DNA from: a virus
Taxonomy: Duplodnaviria > Caudoviricetes
DNA length: 57,928 nt
Strand: one strand, 5' to 3'
IMG/VR virus record: IMGVR_UViG_3300045996_001284
Span: 1-57,928 of that record
Shown: in pieces, positions 37,489 to 41,574 of the stretch
Numbering within the stretch: the first letter of the stretch is position 1
Layout of the letters: each line of letters starts with the position of its first letter
Notes under the pieces: generated by a model
Database searches by the model: none
Told to the model about the DNA's origin: nothing
The model's input: only the letters and a program-made list of their open reading frames with translations
Translations under genes and position numbers: made by a program

Positions 37489-37851
37489 CTAGTCCGCGGC
37501 CAGCCGCTCAGCCACCGCCTGGAGGTCTATGCCGAGCGTGCGGGCCAACTTCTGGAGCGCGAGGGCACATGCCTCCTCTTCGCGCCAGCACGTCGCATGC
37601 TTGCCGATCGCGATGCCCATCAGCGTGGGGCTGCAAGGCAGGCCGAGGAGCGCTGCCAGGATGTGGTGAGTTAGCTCGTGATCACGGGACATGCGCGCTG
37701 TGTCAGCGCCGTAGCCAAGCTCACGAGCCCGCGCCTTGTATCCATCCGTCGCCTGCGGGTACGCCGCAACCTCGCCCTCTGGGTAGACCGTAACGGTTAG
37801 CGGGTCATCGTGGAGGCGGATGTCTGCACCAGCCAGGTGGATGGTCTTCAC
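37489..37851 (-). CDS. Hypothetical protein with HExxH motif
   Basis: RDHELTHH; GTGA overlap with the methyltransferase stop. Confidence 0.6.
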   Translation of the reverse strand: MKTIHLAGADIRLHDDPLTVTVYPEGEVAAYPQATDGYKARARELGYGADTARMSRDHELTHHILAALLGLPCSPTLMGIAIGKHATCWREEEACALALQKLARTLGIDLQAVAERLAAD

Positions 37852-39662
37852 GCGGCAGCCGAGGTGAAGAGCGGGCCGACTTCACCGGGCTCTACAGCGG
37901 GCTTCTCAGCCCCGCCCAGGCGTCTCACGATGTCCTGGATGTATTCGGCCTCGCGCTCCACGAGCACAGCCTGGAAGCCCTCGGCGACCGCCGCAGCTCC
38001 AGTCGTGCCGCTGCCGGCAAACGGGTCGAGCACGGTGCCGCCGGGGGGCGTGACCATGCGGACGAGCCAGCGCATGAGGGAGAGGGGCTTTATGGTCGGA
38101 TGAGATGACCCTGCTCGATCAACCTTCCCCGCCTTCGCGCTGTAGTGGAACCGCAGCTCCTCGCGCGTGAGCGGGCAGGGCTGGAAGAAGCGGGCGGCTG
38201 AACCGCGGTCGTGATAGCTGCCCCAGCAAGTGCGGTCAGCAAACTCCCCGTAGACCGTCTGCGTCTTTGAGCTTGGGGCACTCGGACGGATGTTGCCGCC
38301 GGCCACCCGCTCCCCGAACAGGTCGAACGCCGCCAGCACTTCCTCGTCGCCTGAGTGGACTAGGTTGGCGGGCCAGCGGCCTACTGCGTTGTAGGTCGGC
38401 TGCTCATGGTCAGAGCGGAGCCCGCTCGCCTCGCCTTCTTTCCACGTCACGCGAGCGGAGCGCTGCCGCTGCACCTTGGCAGGATCGTACTCCTCGCCCA
38501 TAACAACCCTGCACCCGTCGATATTCAGCGCCCCCGTGCCCCAGCGCAGCACGTTTAAGTGGATGCTGGGCTCACTTAGAGATTTCCTCGCCAAGCAAAT
38601 CGGCTCATGGCTGGGTTTTAGGGCTCCCGAGAACCCACCGAACTCCGGCGAGAGTTTGCCGCATCTCGGGCAGCAGCCACCGTCTCGTAGTGCTCGTCCA
38701 TCCAGTGCTCCAGATGGCTCGCATAGACCTTCAGGTTGTCCAGCCGGTTGTCTGCCCGATCCAGATTGCGATGATGCACTTCCTCGCCCGGTTCCAGCGA
38801 GCGGCCTAGCATCTGCTCCGCTACCAAGATGTGTTCGCAGACGTAACCGTTCTTCCGCGCCCTCGGATGGTCCCGCTTCAGCACCATCACGTAGCCTTTG
38901 CCCGGCTCGACGTAGCGCCCGCCCTTCCAAGCCGGGTTGTTCTCTCCCGCTAGCTTCGGGTTCGGACCCCGTGGGCCATAGCTCCGATGGACTGTGTTCC
39001 GGCAAGCGCGGGAGCAGAACTTCCCCTCGTTCGTCGTCATAGTAGACGGGCGGCGGTAGATCGGCTTGTCGCAAAGGTCGCAAGTCGTGTTCGGCCGCCT
39101 GTTGGTCATCGCACTCACACCACTCAATGCCTGAGCGGTTTTTTAGCAGACCAACTTTTGCAAATCCAGTCCCATAAATCCACGCGAGCTGATCGCGGAC
39201 CTCGAACCCCGCATCCTCGATCGCGCACACCATGCGGTGGTAGGTGCGGGTGCCGCCGAACGCCACGAGATGGGCGCCGGGCTTGAGCACGCGGTAGACC
39301 TCGCGCGCCCACTCCTCGCACCAGTCTTGAAAGGCCCGCATCTGCCGGACGCGAGTGGCCTCGCGCGCCTCATCCCACTGTGGCGCGTCGCAGGTGCATG
39401 GCTTTGCACCCCGGCGCCGACCGCCACACGCTAGGCAGTTGGCATTGCGGGTGCCACCCCAGCCACCTGGCGTAGCGCGCTCACGATCGCCGAAGAGCTT
39501 TGACTTGCCGCCGAGCTGCCAGGGGGCATCCCACTCGCGCCCCATGAACTCCAGCCCATAAGGCGGGTCCGTCACCACCGCCTCGATGCTGTCCGAGTCG
39601 AGCGTCCGCAGCACGTCCAGGCAGTCGCCGTGGTGAAGCGTGGCCCCGCCGACCTGGATCAT
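37848..39662 (-). CDS. DNA methyltransferase (beta class, DPPY, probably N6-adenine) with in-frame insertion
   Basis: HGDCL, VTDPPY, RVLKPGA, ALKPSHEPI, HPTIKP, VLDPFAGSGTT; start ATG 39662 via ATGA overlap. Confidence 0.9.
   Translation of the reverse strand: MIQVGGATLHHGDCLDVLRTLDSDSIEAVVTDPPYGLEFMGREWDAPWQLGGKSKLFGDRERATPGGWGGTRNANCLACGGRRRGAKPCTCDAPQWDEAREATRVRQMRAFQDWCEEWAREVYRVLKPGAHLVAFGGTRTYHRMVCAIEDAGFEVRDQLAWIYGTGFAKVGLLKNRSGIEWCECDDQQAAEHDLRPLRQADLPPPVYYDDERGEVLLPRLPEHSPSELWPTGSEPEASGREQPGLEGRALRRAGQRLRDGAEAGPSEGAEERLRLRTHLGSGADARPLAGTGRGSASSQSGSGRQPAGQPEGLCEPSGALDGRALRDGGCCPRCGKLSPEFGGFSGALKPSHEPICLARKSLSEPSIHLNVLRWGTGALNIDGCRVVMGEEYDPAKVQRQRSARVTWKEGEASGLRSDHEQPTYNAVGRWPANLVHSGDEEVLAAFDLFGERVAGGNIRPSAPSSKTQTVYGEFADRTCWGSYHDRGSAARFFQPCPLTREELRFHYSAKAGKVDRAGSSHPTIKPLSLMRWLVRMVTPPGGTVLDPFAGSGTTGAAAVAEGFQAVLVEREAEYIQDIVRRLGGAEKPAVEPGEVGPLFTSAAA
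38618..39109 (-). CDS. HNH endonuclease nested in the +1 frame of the methyltransferase
   Basis: CDLC...FCSRAC, GENNPAWKGG, HPRA...GYVCEHILVAEQMLGRSL..GEEVHHRNLDRADNRLDNL. Confidence 0.88.
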   Translation of the reverse strand: MTNRRPNTTCDLCDKPIYRRPSTMTTNEGKFCSRACRNTVHRSYGPRGPNPKLAGENNPAWKGGRYVEPGKGYVMVLKRDHPRARKNGYVCEHILVAEQMLGRSLEPGEEVHHRNLDRADNRLDNLKVYASHLEHWMDEHYETVAAARDAANSRRSSVGSREP

Positions 39663-41173
39663 GCGACAGCCTCTGCGAACAGGGGCGCATCGCCCCGCAA
39701 CCGCTCGGCACCCATCGCGACGTAGGCGGGACTCATCTCGATGCCCACGCTGCGGCGCTGGAGACGCTCGGCCACGAGGAGCGTGGTGGAGGCCCCGGCG
39801 AACGGGTCGAGCACGGTTCCGCCGGCAGGACAGCCCGCCTTGATGCAACGCTCGGCCAGCTCGGGGGGGAAGGTTGCAAAGTGATCCGTAATTGTGGTAT
39901 CTTCCTCGCATGTACACGTGCGAGCGTTGCCATCAGCCGTTTGTCCCGAGGGATGCTTCGGCTGCTCACCAGAAGAGAAACCCTGCTCGGTTCTGCTCTC
40001 GGGACTGTGGCCGGACATGGCGCCGGAAGCAGGTTGAGGTTCACTGCCGCCAGTGTGGGCAGGTGATGCTGCGGCGACAGTCCCATGCTGCGAAGTCCCA
40101 GGAGCGAGGCCCGTTCTGCGGCTTTCGTTGCTATGCGGACTGGCAGGCGACGAACACTCGTGGAGCAGCGAACCCGAACTATCAGGCGTCCAGCCCTCGA
40201 CGAGGCTCGTCTGAATGGGAGCGGGCGCGTCTAGTGGCTCTGGATCGGGACAGGCATTGCTGCCAGGACTGCGGGCAGACTGAGAAGCGGCTTGTGGTCC
40301 ACCATATCCAGCCGTGGACGCCTCAGTCCGCCGCTCCCCATGCAGTGGGCAATCTGGTGACACTTTGCGACCGCTGCCACCGGCTGCGCCACGCAGCAGA
40401 TGAGCGCCGCTGAAAGGCTGGGTGGCGATCGTCCAGACGGAGCGGATGTTGCGGCCGGTCTGGGCGAGATGTTCGGCGGCTCGGTCGCCGAGCATCTTCA
40501 TGCCGTCGGGCCTGCCACTGTCGTAAGGGCGCTTGTTGCCAGGAGGGCTCACGCCAAGCGTTAGAGGCTCCTTCACCGCCTCCGCATCGAAGAAGTATCG
40601 CGGGCTCTTCGCGAGCAGGAACAGGTACTCATGCGCCTTGGTCGGGCGGTCGGTGACGCTCTCCGGCATCGGGTTGGGTTTCGCCCAAATGATGTCCGAG
40701 CGCAGCCACCAGCCGTCGTCTTGCAGCGCGAACGCCACGCGCCAGGGAACGCCGACGAGGTCTTTCGGCTTGAGGCCGTCCGTGGGCTTGCGCTGTCGAG
40801 CCTTACCGGCAAGCTCGGAATGCTTGCCCGTCCCGGTCCCGTATGCCGCGGCCCTACGAGCTAGGTCACCAACTCCGCAGTCATCCCGGCCGATTTTCCC
40901 GCCTGCGAAAGAGTCGCCCAGGTTCAGCCAGCACGTCCCATCCGCCCGCAGCACGCGCCGCACCTCGCGGAAGATCGCGACCAGCTTCTCGACGTACTCG
41001 CCGACCGTGGGCTCGAGGCCGAGTTGCCCGGCCACGCCGTAGTCGCGCAGGCCCCAATAGGGCGGGCTGGTGACGCAGCAGTGGACGCTGTCGGCCGGCA
41101 GCCCCACCAGCACCTCGCGGCAGTCGCCGTGCAGCAGCGTGGCCCCGCCGACCTGGATCATCCCGGAACTCAT
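39659..41173 (-). CDS. DNA methyltransferase (beta class, SPPY, probably N4-cytosine) with in-frame insertion
   Basis: VTSPPYWGLRDY, KPNPMPESVTDRPT, RSVWTI, HFATFP, VLDPFAG. Confidence 0.9.
   Translation of the reverse strand: MSSGMIQVGGATLLHGDCREVLVGLPADSVHCCVTSPPYWGLRDYGVAGQLGLEPTVGEYVEKLVAIFREVRRVLRADGTCWLNLGDSFAGGKIGRDDCGVGDLARRAAAYGTGTGKHSELAGKARQRKPTDGLKPKDLVGVPWRVAFALQDDGWWLRSDIIWAKPNPMPESVTDRPTKAHEYLFLLAKSPRYFFDAEAVKEPLTLGVSPPGNKRPYDSGRPDGMKMLGDRAAEHLAQTGRNIRSVWTIATQPFSGAHLLRGAAGGSGRKVSPDCPLHGERRTEASTAGYGGPQAASQSARSPGSNACPDPEPLDAPAPIQTSLVEGWTPDSSGSLLHECSSPASPHSNESRRTGLAPGTSQHGTVAAASPAHTGGSEPQPASGAMSGHSPESRTEQGFSSGEQPKHPSGQTADGNARTCTCEEDTTITDHFATFPPELAERCIKAGCPAGGTVLDPFAGASTTLLVAERLQRRSVGIEMSPAYVAMGAERLRGDAPLFAEAVA
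39874..39903 (+). promoter_or_regulatory. Putative sigma70 promoter for the antisense HNH (leaderless)
   Basis: TTGCAA-N18-TATCTT with extended TG; ATG follows 6 nt after the -10 box. Confidence 0.5.
39910..40413 (+). CDS. HNH endonuclease nested antisense within the methyltransferase
   Basis: Two Cys fingers, GAANPNY, W..AR..ALDRDRHCCQDCG...VHHIQP...NLVTLCDRCHRLRH. Confidence 0.88.
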   Translation: MYTCERCHQPFVPRDASAAHQKRNPARFCSRDCGRTWRRKQVEVHCRQCGQVMLRRQSHAAKSQERGPFCGFRCYADWQATNTRGAANPNYQASSPRRGSSEWERARLVALDRDRHCCQDCGQTEKRLVVHHIQPWTPQSAAPHAVGNLVTLCDRCHRLRHAADERR

Positions 41174-41385
41174 CTCTCGTATTGGGGTGGTTTCGTGATG
41201 CAGTTCTGAGACGCTGGCGTGCTTGGCCGCGTCCGCTCAGTGAGAGACTATCAAAAACGGTCGTTTGCGGGGTACGCGCTGCGTGCATAAGAGGCATGCT
41301 GAAAGAGCATTAGCGGAAGCACGCAATGCGTGGCATAACCCTTCTCACGCCAGGGCAATCAAGCCCGGCGAAAGGGAGGCCCCCG

Positions 41386-41574
41386 ATGGCCACTTCTCCT
41401 TCTCTTCCCCCCCTGCGGCGCCGCCTGCGCGGCCTGCCGGCCAGCTGCCACAAGCAGCTGTGCGGAGGCTACCTCCGCGAGGCGGAGCGGCTTCAGGGCC
41501 GCAACCCGGCCCGCGAGGCCGAGCTTCTCTCCCTGGTGGAGCGGTGGCTCCCCTACGCGGAGGCGGCGCGATGA
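41386..41574 (+). CDS. Hypothetical accessory protein
   Basis: GGGAGG RBS. Confidence 0.55.
   Translation: MATSPSLPPLRRRLRGLPASCHKQLCGGYLREAERLQGRNPAREAELLSLVERWLPYAEAAR

Follow-up and report, generated by a model that had tools for sequence, protein, structure and literature searches.

Conserved Host-Frame Cys/His Motifs Bracket Hidden HNH Inserts in Two Viral DNA Methyltransferase Genes: A Candidate Zinc Closure

Introduction

The closest described system is the "ShiLan domain", a hidden, out-of-frame HNH endonuclease gene within phage methylase genes (Arsenault, Gosselin and Gogarten 2025, PMC11855218; 2023, PMC9957025). Inteins have also been described, among them the methylase intein shared by ShiLan and Dorothy and inteins with antisense or out-of-frame endonucleases (Gosselin et al., preprint 10.1101/2025.01.02.630785). 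No antisense hidden HNH gene was seen in sections 3.1, 3.2 and 4.4 of PMC11855218. On the subject of zinc, cysteines or CxxC motifs in the host frame, PMC11855218 treats only zinc fingers of the HNH frame and PMC9957025 nothing (main texts). A host-frame Cys/His bracket was not found mentioned in print.

In Aeromonas phage Aeh1, the free-standing homing gene mobE splits its host gene nrdA; the host protein then consists of two separate chains, and its function is retained. The sequence CPxCG is the classic signature of the rubredoxin or zinc-ribbon knuckle. The present analysis concerned two adjoining methyltransferase genes of a virus (Duplodnaviria; Caudoviricetes; IMG/VR record IMGVR_UViG_3300045996_001284). 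The window is the whole stretch analyzed, 57,928 nt, and all positions refer to it.

Results

Interrupted Methyltransferase Genes

Two minus-strand genes, MT1 and MT2, encoded DNA methyltransferases, with the start of MT1 overlapping the stop of MT2 (ATGA):

37848..39662, minus strand: MT1 gene, beta-class N6/N4 DNA methyltransferase, 604 aa plus stop (Pfam PF01555, E = 1.2e-30)
39659..41173, minus strand: MT2 gene, second N6/N4 DNA methyltransferase, 504 aa plus stop (Pfam PF01555, E = 5.8e-44)

CcrM, TTHA0409 and RsrI were matches of the MT1 model, and MT2 was 50–54% identical to uninterrupted phage methylases of ~300–360 aa. Relative to uninvaded homologues, each gene carried an insert of ~150–170 extra codons with Cys/His motifs exactly at its ends:

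38655..39119, minus strand: insert 1, read in the MT1 frame from C182 to K336 and consisting of CEC, ~145 low-confidence residues and CCPRCGK
39884..40399, minus strand: insert 2, read in the MT2 frame from L259 to D430 (172 codons) and separating ...QPFSGAH / FATFP...

MT2 homologues without an insert read RSVWTIATQPFSEAHFATFP, uninterrupted, and 75 of the 79 short MT2-type sequences had empty sites lacking Cys. MT1 relatives without an insert had a Cys-free segment of ~20 to 90 residues; within the MT1 subfamily itself the empty site was seen in protein P0054 as 'GFNKVGYIRDPATKEIVREGWAGSLKPS', again with no Cys. Soil-metagenome contigs joined position 39883 to position 40421 via 18 other letters, a length equal to the six codons of an uninvaded allele.

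The first-pass annotation had regarded both inserts as disordered-looking junk. The disordered look was borne out: AlphaFold2 confidence (pLDDT) was below 50 at residues 192–319 of MT1 and at residues 283–313 and 316–414 of MT2 (values 29–38), and PF01555 was the only host-frame Pfam match, leaving no domain in the sequence between the motifs. The term junk did not stand, as the filler is what the host frame makes of a real HNH gene of the published type:

38618..39127, minus strand, in another frame of the MT1 strand: hidden HNH_3 endonuclease ORF, HNH1 (PF13392, E = 9.4e-10), with TTG at 39127, a likely ATG at 39109 and the stop at 38618–38620
39910..40413, plus strand, antisense to MT2: hidden HNH endonuclease ORF, HNH2, 167 aa plus stop (PF01844, E = 2.3e-9)

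Nesting was found in 63 of 80 related loci of the insert-1 type and in 15 of 18 of the insert-2 type, where the relatives of HNH2 lay antisense within methylase ORFs. Free-standing halovirus HNHs in the phage collection were only ~30% identical to HNH2. Among the MT2-type and MT1-type loci listed, HNH identity was 25–69% and GC content 39–65%; these were not near-identical copies.

Cys/His Motifs at the Insert Ends

Translation of both minus-strand ORFs agreed with the first-pass annotation that each insert has a CxC at one end and a CxxC or CxxH at the other; of its limits, 38655 falls on the K of ...CPRCGK and 40360 on the S of SPDCPLHG. The two pairs are referred to as brackets 1 and 2:

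39111..39119, minus strand: bracket 1, N-side, C182-E-C184 (IEW-CEC-DD), columns at least 90% conserved, pLDDT ~75
38661..38672, minus strand: bracket 1, C-side, C331-P-R-C334 followed by G, a CPxCG-type knuckle, at least 90% conserved, pLDDT ~86
40340..40351, minus strand: bracket 2, N-side, C275-P-L-H278 followed by G (SPD-CPLH-G), present in 39/40 proteins and 14/14 loci
39908..39916, minus strand: bracket 2, C-side, C420-T-C422 (RT-CTC-EE), overlapping the start codon region of the antisense HNH2

The C-side context in MT1 was GG-C330-C331-P-R-C334-GK, with C330 directly before the knuckle. MT2 contained no C.C, C..C or C..H motifs besides bracket 2, and the only other such motifs in MT1 formed a separate short pair with no insert between its halves:

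39390..39437, minus strand: CxxCG-x9-CxC pair near the MT1 N-terminus (CLACGG...PCTC), CLAC at 39437–39426 and CTC at 39398–39390

A pair of this N-terminal type occurred in 9 of 112 homologues, always with 9–18 residues between the halves.

AlphaFold2 does not model zinc, and the evidence drawn from it is pLDDT, not Cys-Cys distances. In MT2 the block containing CPLH (residues 271–280) reached a pLDDT of 70 against 43 and 46 on either side, and the CTC region (residues 415–423) scored at least 50, outside the segments below that value. The MT1 model had isolated beta-bridges at residues 181, 330, and 337. The pLDDT peaks were local, and the support from MT2 was the weaker. The conserved RSVWTIATQPF just before insert 2 itself had low pLDDT (48 and 37), and the MT2 model therefore shows no normally folded neighborhood.

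Proposed Zinc Closure of the Inserts

Each insert may be understood as a homing-endonuclease cassette that does not splice and resembles the hidden HNH genes published for ShiLan: its HNH gene uses a different frame or strand from the methyltransferase, and its host frame is free of stops. Because the methyltransferase frame is kept stop-free, the ribosome would read straight through the insert, placing ~150–170 residues of disordered filler in the methyltransferase. The cassette ends would encode two host-frame half-sites, one a CxC and the other a CPx(C/H)G knuckle, that jointly bind one Zn(II), as a Cys4 site in MT1 and a Cys3His site in MT2. The Zn(II) would close the filler into a loop with its ends a few angstroms apart. 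The methyltransferase fold would then need to accommodate only a surface loop bearing a small zinc knuckle, and RNA or protein splicing would be unnecessary. From the sequences and the structure models, it is probable, though well short of certain, that four-ligand zinc closure of the ends of these non-splicing inserts lets the methyltransferase fold.

Conservation and History of the Bracket

The first-pass annotation had named conservation of the motifs in homologous inserts as a check, and there they were conserved. Both CxC and CxxC were present in 53 of 56 MT1-type long-insert sequences, one alone in none and neither in three, while CxxH and CxC were present in 39 of 40 MT2-type insert-bearing proteins, counts that are not phylogenetically independent. 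All four MT2-type ligands were kept in 14 of 14 distinct DNA loci. In a 50-sequence alignment with a mean column identity of 19%, C182, C184, C331, and C334 were each at least 90% conserved. The MT1-type C-side motif occurred as CPRCG, CARCG, CERCG and other variants, and the MT2-type N-side motif as CP(L/V/I)HG; one MT2-type protein (P0161) had CPIY instead of CPxH.

The bracket was lacking in 6 of 49 same-strand related loci, or about one in eight. Two loci (L080 and L081) had two CxxC motifs each, both on the N side, and one (L095) had the C-side motif only. Bracket-less loci were scattered over the HNH tree (five changes by parsimony, at least two of them forced by well-supported branches), and in the loci of that analysis both motifs were missing together. 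The bracket is dispensable for tolerating such inserts, as ShiLan and the six same-strand loci lack one. It was also absent where the HNH_3 family lay inside an intein (L023, L024, L026, and L109). Several independent in-frame HNH deletions, of at least four kinds, had left the bracket in place. All four Cys were kept in proteins whose deletions had four different end-points (P0031/P0052, P0034, P0039, and P0040), and the bracket was likewise kept after HNH loss in P0064, P0044, P0156, and P0158. At one locus (L096) bracket and filler occurred at another methylase site. By this distribution among homologues, the bracket appears to travel with the cassette. Motifs present or absent together, their retention after HNH deletion, their absence in inteins, and the pLDDT peaks fit a joint structural role.

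A broader proposal is put forward tentatively, at less than even likelihood: the cassettes would carry their own host-frame zinc staple (CxC + CPx(C/H)G) neutralizing the insertion structurally, a staple that, by origin or by recruitment, came to serve two unrelated HNH families in either orientation and at no fewer than three methyltransferase sites, and that was left as a small zinc knuckle after endonuclease decay and deletion.

An unlikely, though serious, alternative is that the bracket is a native small zinc-ribbon module (e.g., a DNA-contacting element of the variable region), older than the HNH genes that colonized its tolerant loop, with the motifs kept for methylase function. This history also predicts zinc binding and loop closure, and therefore differs from the zinc closure proposed above mainly in the order of events. 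It would account for the short knuckle pairs without inserts, which were found at the MT1 N-terminus, in P0055, P0104, P0164, and P0220, and as a CxxCG...CxC knuckle between FPxxL and VLDPF in L011 and L012; one bracket also holds HNH genes of both orientations, which fits repeated colonization of one loop. However, the empty alleles of both sites are Cys-free, and in L096 bracket and filler are together elsewhere in the methylase. Moreover, the short bracket-only forms hold filler remnants with varying end-points and are therefore deletion products, not ancestors.

Open Host Frame and Condition of the Methyltransferases

After shuffling of synonymous codons in the HNH core, the host frame was still open in 0 of 1000 shuffles for insert 1 and in 12 of 1000 for insert 2. 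This figure was below 5% in 51 of 53 MT1-type and 11 of 14 MT2-type loci, a sample composed only of loci already seen to be nested. It was 5% or higher at five loci: L034 (0.119), L037 (0.132), L042 (0.063), L084 (0.08), and L089 (0.857). The open host frame through the inserts is selected, beyond chance. The open-frame loci were diverged, some having 39–49% GC. The catalytic motifs DPPY/SPPY and DPFxGxG were kept in insert-bearing methylases 38–55% identical to MT1 and MT2; judged by these motifs, the insert-bearing methylases look alive.

The contrary reading, that the inserts inactivate the methyltransferases, that the open frames and the motifs arose recently by accident, and that the Cys/His motifs have no function, is very improbable. 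Methylase activity is a prediction from sequence, AlphaFold2 confidence was low around insert 2, and motif I of MT2 is FAGAS, departing from the G found at the last position in at least 90% of relatives. Against this stand a host frame open far beyond the shuffle expectation in dozens of diverged loci, catalytic motifs preserved at the identities given above, and ligands that stay constant where the overlapping HNH residues vary.

Splicing Signatures

Rfam intron covariance models, run over positions 37500–41500 on both strands at E ≤ 1, gave no intron match, only two chance hits. Pfam gave no Hint, intein or Intein_splicing match in the host frame of either insert. Cysteines stand at both junctions, as in inteins, and the ShiLan work likewise could not exclude an unusual splicing element (main text of PMC11855218). 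Still, it would be very surprising if the flanking cysteines were catalytic and the filler were removed by unrecognized protein splicing or self-cleavage through thioester chemistry. Neither a Hint fold nor intein blocks are present, and the downstream Cys has no conserved preceding Asn or Gln. The pattern of CxC and CPxCG, with a His substitution in MT2, is that of a metal site rather than of nucleophiles, and after a cut between the cysteines MT2 would still be ~30 residues too long. In bracket-only deletion forms the four residues all persist with nothing left to splice.

Independence From HNH Coding

The first-pass annotation had raised the question of whether HNH codons force the motifs, and they do not: the position of the 5' CxC, the varying HNH residues and the loci with inverted HNH genes all speak against it. 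Most MT1-type loci had the CxC 16–55 nt upstream of their likely HNH ATG, often just past an HNH-frame stop; in a few, the window included, the distance to that ATG was only 7–10 nt. The MT1-type CxxC overlapped the variable HNH tail, which was read differently among subgroups. Where the HNH gene was inverted (L084, L089, L105, and L110), the host order CxC...CxxCGKP was unchanged. The host Cys of MT2-type loci lay over an HNH D, G or S, always encoded by a Cys-keeping codon, and in one locus the HNH His had changed to Arg with the host His retained.

That the motifs are a by-product of codons needed by the overlapping HNH gene has a negligible likelihood: the MT2 CPxH does overlap the conserved ...GNLVTLC... 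motif and CTC the HNH start, and CxxC overlaps ...ENLVLFAN... in one MT1-type subgroup, but a synonymous HNH coding has only a 1/6 to 1/2 chance of keeping a given ligand while all four are kept in each of the 14 MT2-type loci, the HNH residues change over constant ligands, CxC usually lies beyond the HNH coding sequence, the host order survives inversion and the motifs outlast HNH deletion. Taken with their conservation, this independence supports the zinc clasp suggested in the first-pass annotation as a reading of the sequences.

Discussion

In its main text, the published hidden-HNH work leaves unexplained how a methylase survives ~170 nonsense residues in its core, and a four-ligand site would be a concrete answer. 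If true, zinc closure would be a third route, besides RNA and protein splicing, by which a homing element is made harmless to its host gene, and would offer a simple guide to building large loops into enzymes. On the broader zinc-staple proposal, the small, patchily distributed zinc ribbons of these methylases, and perhaps of other enzymes, would in part be scars of selfish elements. The phenomenon itself, so far a matter of a few mycobacteriophages, was extended to metagenomic viral loci numbering well over a hundred. An antisense form was added, as was a path of decay from an HNH-bearing insert to a bracket-only knuckle.

Comparison With Known Systems

Like the ShiLan domain as presented in its main text, the HNH gene lies in another frame of a PF01555 phage methylase gene, the host frame is open, there is no intron or intein signature, and the filler is predicted to loop out. 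HNH1 was 41–43% identical to ShiLan-type hidden HNH, and MT1 and ShiLan gp65 are members of one methylase family. Although HNH1 and the ShiLan HNH gene are homologous, the insertion site is not shared: ShiLan is inserted ~10 residues farther downstream (ALKPSYEP / ... / TAFEPIVVARKP), without CxC/CxxC flanks. Insert 2 differs further in that its HNH gene is antisense, of another HNH family (PF01844), and in another methylase subfamily and site.

Inteins, as described in the text of the preprint cited above, are likewise selfish, endonuclease-bearing segments that sit in a conserved gene, are translated together with it and are rendered harmless at the level of the protein, and the HNH_3 family is also found out of frame in homologues of the ShiLan/Dorothy methylase intein (L023, L024, L026, and L109). 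In contrast to inteins, the MT1 and MT2 inserts have no Hint domain or splicing residues, and are proposed to be retained and pinned by metal rather than excised.

As in the rubredoxin knuckle and zinc ribbons, two short half-sites conserved across homologues would supply four Cys/His ligands. Here the half-sites, known from sequence, are 120–250 filler residues apart instead of on a short hairpin or loop, and one half is CxC, not CxxC. As with mobE in nrdA, an HNH-type homing gene that does not splice lies within a phage gene that is essential or conserved and whose function would be retained; unlike in nrdA, the host frame of MT1 and MT2 is continuous and selected to stay open.

Two methylase genes with concealed endonuclease genes

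The 57.9-kb window, an IMG/VR virus record, contains two tandem DNA methyltransferase genes on the minus strand, MT2 and MT1, each interrupted by an insert (insert 2 and insert 1, respectively) that conceals an HNH endonuclease gene (HNH2 and HNH1). The MT2 stop codon shares an ATGA with the MT1 start codon at 39659-39662, which suggests translational coupling of the two methylases. The features of the region are listed below; N-side and C-side half-sites are Cys/His motifs read in the host (methylase) frame.

41173-39659, minus strand: MT2, 504 aa (Pfam PF01555 N6_N4_Mtase, E = 5.8e-44)
39662-37848, minus strand: MT1, 604 aa (Pfam PF01555 N6_N4_Mtase, E = 1.2e-30)
39910-40413, plus strand, antisense to MT2: HNH2 in insert 2 (HNH, PF01844, E = 2.3e-9)
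39127/39109-38618, minus strand, in a frame other than that of MT1: HNH1 in insert 1 (HNH_3, PF13392, E = 9.4e-10)
40351-40340, minus strand: MT2 N-side half-site, C275-P-L-H278, then G
39916-39908, minus strand: MT2 C-side half-site, C420-T-C422
39119-39111, minus strand: MT1 N-side half-site, C182-E-C184
38672-38661, minus strand: MT1 C-side half-site, C331-P-R-C334, then G
39390-39437, minus strand: MT1 N-terminal knuckle, residues 76-91, CxxCG-x9-CxC, CLACGGRRRGAKPCTC, in the N-terminal variable region

Each methylase exceeds its uninvaded relatives by approximately 170 codons. In Pseudomonas phages LESphi3 and MR13 the corresponding methylases (ca. 300-360 aa, 50-54% identity to MT2) contain an unbroken GAHFATFPP, whereas MT2 reads PFSGAH, then 172 codons, then FATFPPEL. 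MT1 is a member of the actinophage ShiLan/ThulaThula methylase family, with its extra segment located between GxGF(P/A)K and ALKP, and its structure model resembles the beta-class enzymes CcrM, TTHA0409 and RsrI. Motif I of MT2 (residues 458-462, about 39788-39802) is FAGAS; its last position is Gly in at least 90% of aligned relatives.

In the host frame, Pfam identified the methylase domain and nothing else in either protein, and the genome contained no further copies of HNH1 or HNH2. An intron reading was rejected, as no Rfam intron model matched within 37500-41500 (E ≤ 1); the two matches at that threshold, mir-1549 and the GRIK4 3'UTR, were chance matches. Scanning 38400-40600 for sigma-70 promoters and for terminators returned zero sites and was uninformative on the expression of either HNH gene.

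Searches of viral and metagenome contigs with both HNH proteins and their alignments gathered 80 loci of the HNH_3 type and 18 of the MT2 type. The HNH gene lay wholly within a longer open frame bearing methylase motifs in 63 of the HNH_3 loci and in 15 of the MT2-type loci, antisense in every one of the latter. At each locus the synonymous codons of the HNH core were permuted 1000 times. For insert 1 the host frame was open after none of the 1000 permutations, and for insert 2 after 12 of them. Among distinct loci the open-frame share was below 5% in 51 of 53 of the HNH_3 type (exceptions: L084, 0.08; L089, 0.857, a short 82-codon match) and in 11 of 14 of the MT2 type (exceptions: L034, 0.119; L037, 0.132; L042, 0.063). 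The permutation covered loci already seen to be nested, including loci of 39-49% GC, and even with this nested-only set the observed nested shares far exceed the shuffle expectations.

A Cys/His bracket at the insert ends

The first-pass annotation had described a CxC at one end and a CxxC or CxxH at the other end of each insert, and had proposed that these residues form a zinc clasp. Translation of both proteins confirmed the motifs as written, and together they are termed the bracket. Apart from the brackets and the N-terminal CLACGG...PCTC of MT1, neither methylase contains another C.C, C..C or C..H.

The N-terminal CxxCG...CxC knuckle was present in 9 of 112 MT1 homologues, its halves being 9-18 residues apart each time, and also in ShiLan gp65. 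None of the 112 homologues carried a long insert within it. This knuckle may be the scar of a lost cassette (an insert with its HNH gene) or a small independent module.

Conservation of the bracket among homologues

MT1 residues 150-380, used as a protein query, returned 120 proteins, to which the window and five loci were added; anchoring succeeded for 125 of the 126 sequences. Long segments (at least 150 residues) numbered 56; in 53 of them a CxC close to the N end was paired with a CxxC close to the C end, and none had a single motif. The C-side motif was almost always CPxCG-like (CPRCG, CARCG, CERCG, CGRCG and so on). The three long segments lacking both motifs were L020 and P0065, with HNH filler (the translated-through host-frame residues) but no flanks, and P0110, with a different, helical insert. 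In a 50-row alignment with a mean column identity of 19%, C182, C184, C331 and C334 were each at least 90% conserved.

At the DNA level, 38 of 49 distinct same-strand HNH_3 loci had both motifs, two of them (L096 and L108) classed by eye, as were L080, L081, L109 and L133. Six loci had neither motif (L087, L090, L103, L111, L120, L128), L095 had the C-side motif only, L109 lay in an intein and L133 was cut by the locus end. The remaining two, L080 and L081, had a pair of CxxCG motifs spaced by about 30 residues, both N-side of the filler, and no C-side motif; this placement implies a different predicted zinc arrangement, unable to clasp the insert ends.

For MT2, a search with residues 235-450 returned 40 insert-spanning proteins, the window's own included, and 80 others. 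Both the CxxH (mostly SPDCP[LVI]HG) and the CxC, a few residues ahead of (D/S)HFATFP, were found in 39 of the 40; one protein had CPIY...CAC instead. Conservation in homologous inserts thus held for both methylases. Anchoring worked for all but one of the 80 other proteins, and 75 of the 79 had no Cys at the site, typically RSVWTIATQPFSEAHFATFP. The bracket is not the sole solution, being absent in ShiLan and in about one in eight related loci.

Relation of the bracket to the HNH reading frames

Position, codon use and inverted HNH genes indicated, across both locus types, that the bracket is not dictated by HNH codons. In most HNH_3-type loci the CxC preceded the likely ATG by 16-55 nt; in a few, the window among them, the distance was only 7-10 nt. 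The CxC often followed immediately after an HNH-frame stop, and the HNH-frame reading over it was not conserved. The CxxC was within the HNH C-terminal tail, 19-118 nt ahead of the HNH stop, where the HNH-frame reading varied between HNH_3 subgroups. In four loci (L084, L089, L105, L110) the HNH_3 gene was inverted relative to the methylase, and the host order CxC...CxxCGKP was unchanged. These inverted genes fall in the window's own clade, as a sister group (support 100/95). An antisense HNH_3 gene in a constant bracket means that the endonuclease gene was flipped or replaced inside it.

In MT2-type loci the CxC was 5' of the HNH start or spanned it, and the host Cys of CPxH sat over an HNH-frame D, G or S followed by N. 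The Cys-giving codon ending (GAC, GGC or AGC) was used in 14 of 14 distinct loci, while only one-sixth to one-half of the synonymous choices would give the host Cys. The host His lay over an HNH-frame CAT in 13 loci and over CAC in none; in L036 the HNH residue is now Arg (CGT) and the host His is kept.

Structure prediction

AlphaFold2 models of MT1 and MT2 were built from alignments mixing insert-bearing and insert-free relatives. The MT1 model (mean pLDDT 61.8) scored 75 at residues 181-190, 86 at 331-340 and below 50 over 192-319, with isolated beta-bridges at residues 181, 330 and 337. The MT2 model (mean pLDDT 64.3) scored 70 in block 271-280, with flanks of 43 and 46, and 29-38 in the filler blocks; residues 415-423 were outside the below-50 segments. 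The conserved segment directly before the MT2 insert (241-260) scored just 48 and 37.

Cassette or host property

The main rival to the clasp holds that the bracket is a native zinc knuckle of the methylase whose loop is a safe harbour for HNH genes. The difference between the two readings is chiefly historical. Three kinds of sequence are evidence that the bracket would instead belong to the cassette: empty alleles, locus L096 and short HNH-less forms. Empty alleles without a bracket comprise P0054, a protein of the window's MT1 subfamily, and the 75 Cys-free MT2-type sequences. In L096:2089-4245, bracket and filler (YCGC...ICARCGKP) lie between YG and SGFPK, which is the intein site, and not after GFPK, so within a single protein family this type of cassette has at least two insertion sites. 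In P0031/P0052, P0034, P0039 and P0040 the HNH gene is gone and the four ligands are kept, with four different deletion end-points; the bracket was thus retained though nothing was left to hide. These deletion forms belong to one lineage, compared against P0018-P0020, and other lineages contain comparable short forms (P0064, P0044, P0156, P0158). On the HNH tree, whose bootstrap was not fully settled in that run, loci without a bracket were scattered, requiring five changes by parsimony, at least two of them forced by well-supported branches. At each bracket-less case both half-sites were gone together.

Two MT2-type proteins, P0164 and P0220, carry a compact CxxxCxxC...CxC of about 40 residues without an HNH gene at the exact insert-2 site, between RSVW and HFATFP. 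A bracket cassette may have matured into this segment, which would then be a zinc ribbon. A CxxCG...CxC segment of approximately 60-90 residues was found between FPxxL and VLDPFxGxG in the host frames of L011 and L012 and in P0129, P0132 and P0148. Such segments are frequent in MT2-type methylases, and this interval is a third place where a knuckle pair brackets extra sequence.

Inteins with the same HNH family

Four loci (L023:2193-4571, L024:2079-4547, L026:2205-4304, L109:1864-4587) carried HNH_3 out of frame inside homologues of a published methylase intein, with no bracket; protein P0120 is of the same type. These ShiLan/Dorothy-type homologues read CLSxDTEI...VWCVKVPTGAFVARRNGKVFxTGN, followed by SGFPK, and their endonuclease region is host-frame filler hiding HNH_3 in another frame. 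The intein assignment was based on BLASTP comparison with the intein ends published for ShiLan gp65, with which the ends of L024 align; among the intein-bearing relatives, Pfam gave an Intein_splicing match for L023 only, below threshold (E = 0.0035). A preprint on actinophage inteins (10.1101/2025.01.02.630785) describes out-of-frame EndoVII-like and antisense LAGLIDADG/VSR endonucleases within inteins; its available text contained no out-of-frame HNH inside an intein.

Soil-metagenome contigs

Two soil-metagenome DNA runs contained parts of the stretch, and no RNA run was among those listed for it; no contig covered all of it, and both inserts were partly uncovered. Contigs of one run joined 39883 to 40421 via 18 other letters, equal to the six codons of an uninvaded allele, and 39871 to 40425 via 34. 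In one contig from each of the two runs, 38556-39171 was replaced by 310 other letters. Because their matching sides are short (33-50 letters, likeness 85% or more), the insert-spanning joints probably come from related phages. The joints hint that empty alleles coexist.

Interpretation and comparison with the ShiLan domain

The zinc clasp proposed by the first-pass annotation, set in its known context, is the best reading and is supported by the comparative evidence. The hidden-HNH cassettes would be non-splicing. A CxC and a CPx(C/H)G knuckle, specified by the cassette ends in the host frame, would share a single zinc ion and so hold the translated filler as a closed loop. This reading predicts zinc binding, an active methylase and no splicing. 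The same bracket type occurs with two unrelated HNH families, in two methylase subfamilies and in both orientations, which argues that it is conserved for function rather than by descent.

Within the available text of Arsenault, Gosselin and Gogarten 2025 (PMC11855218), zinc and cysteine appear only in connection with HNH-frame zinc fingers and intein chemistry, and neither word appears in that of a 2023 paper (PMC9957025). A literature search found no further papers on the ShiLan domain or, from 2023 onward, on out-of-frame HNH methylase insertions. PMC11855218 describes the ShiLan domain as a stop-free host-frame insertion in mycobacteriophage methylases that hides an out-of-frame HNH. It shows the features of neither an intron nor an intein, and the prediction is that it loops out from the enzyme. 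HNH1 shares 41-43% identity with the ShiLan-type hidden HNHs. Relative to insert 1, which is bracketed, the ShiLan insert is shifted downstream by about 10 residues, between ALKPSYEP and TAFEPIVVARKP, and has no Cys flanks. The kind of element was therefore described in 2025; what is new here is the bracket and one antisense case.
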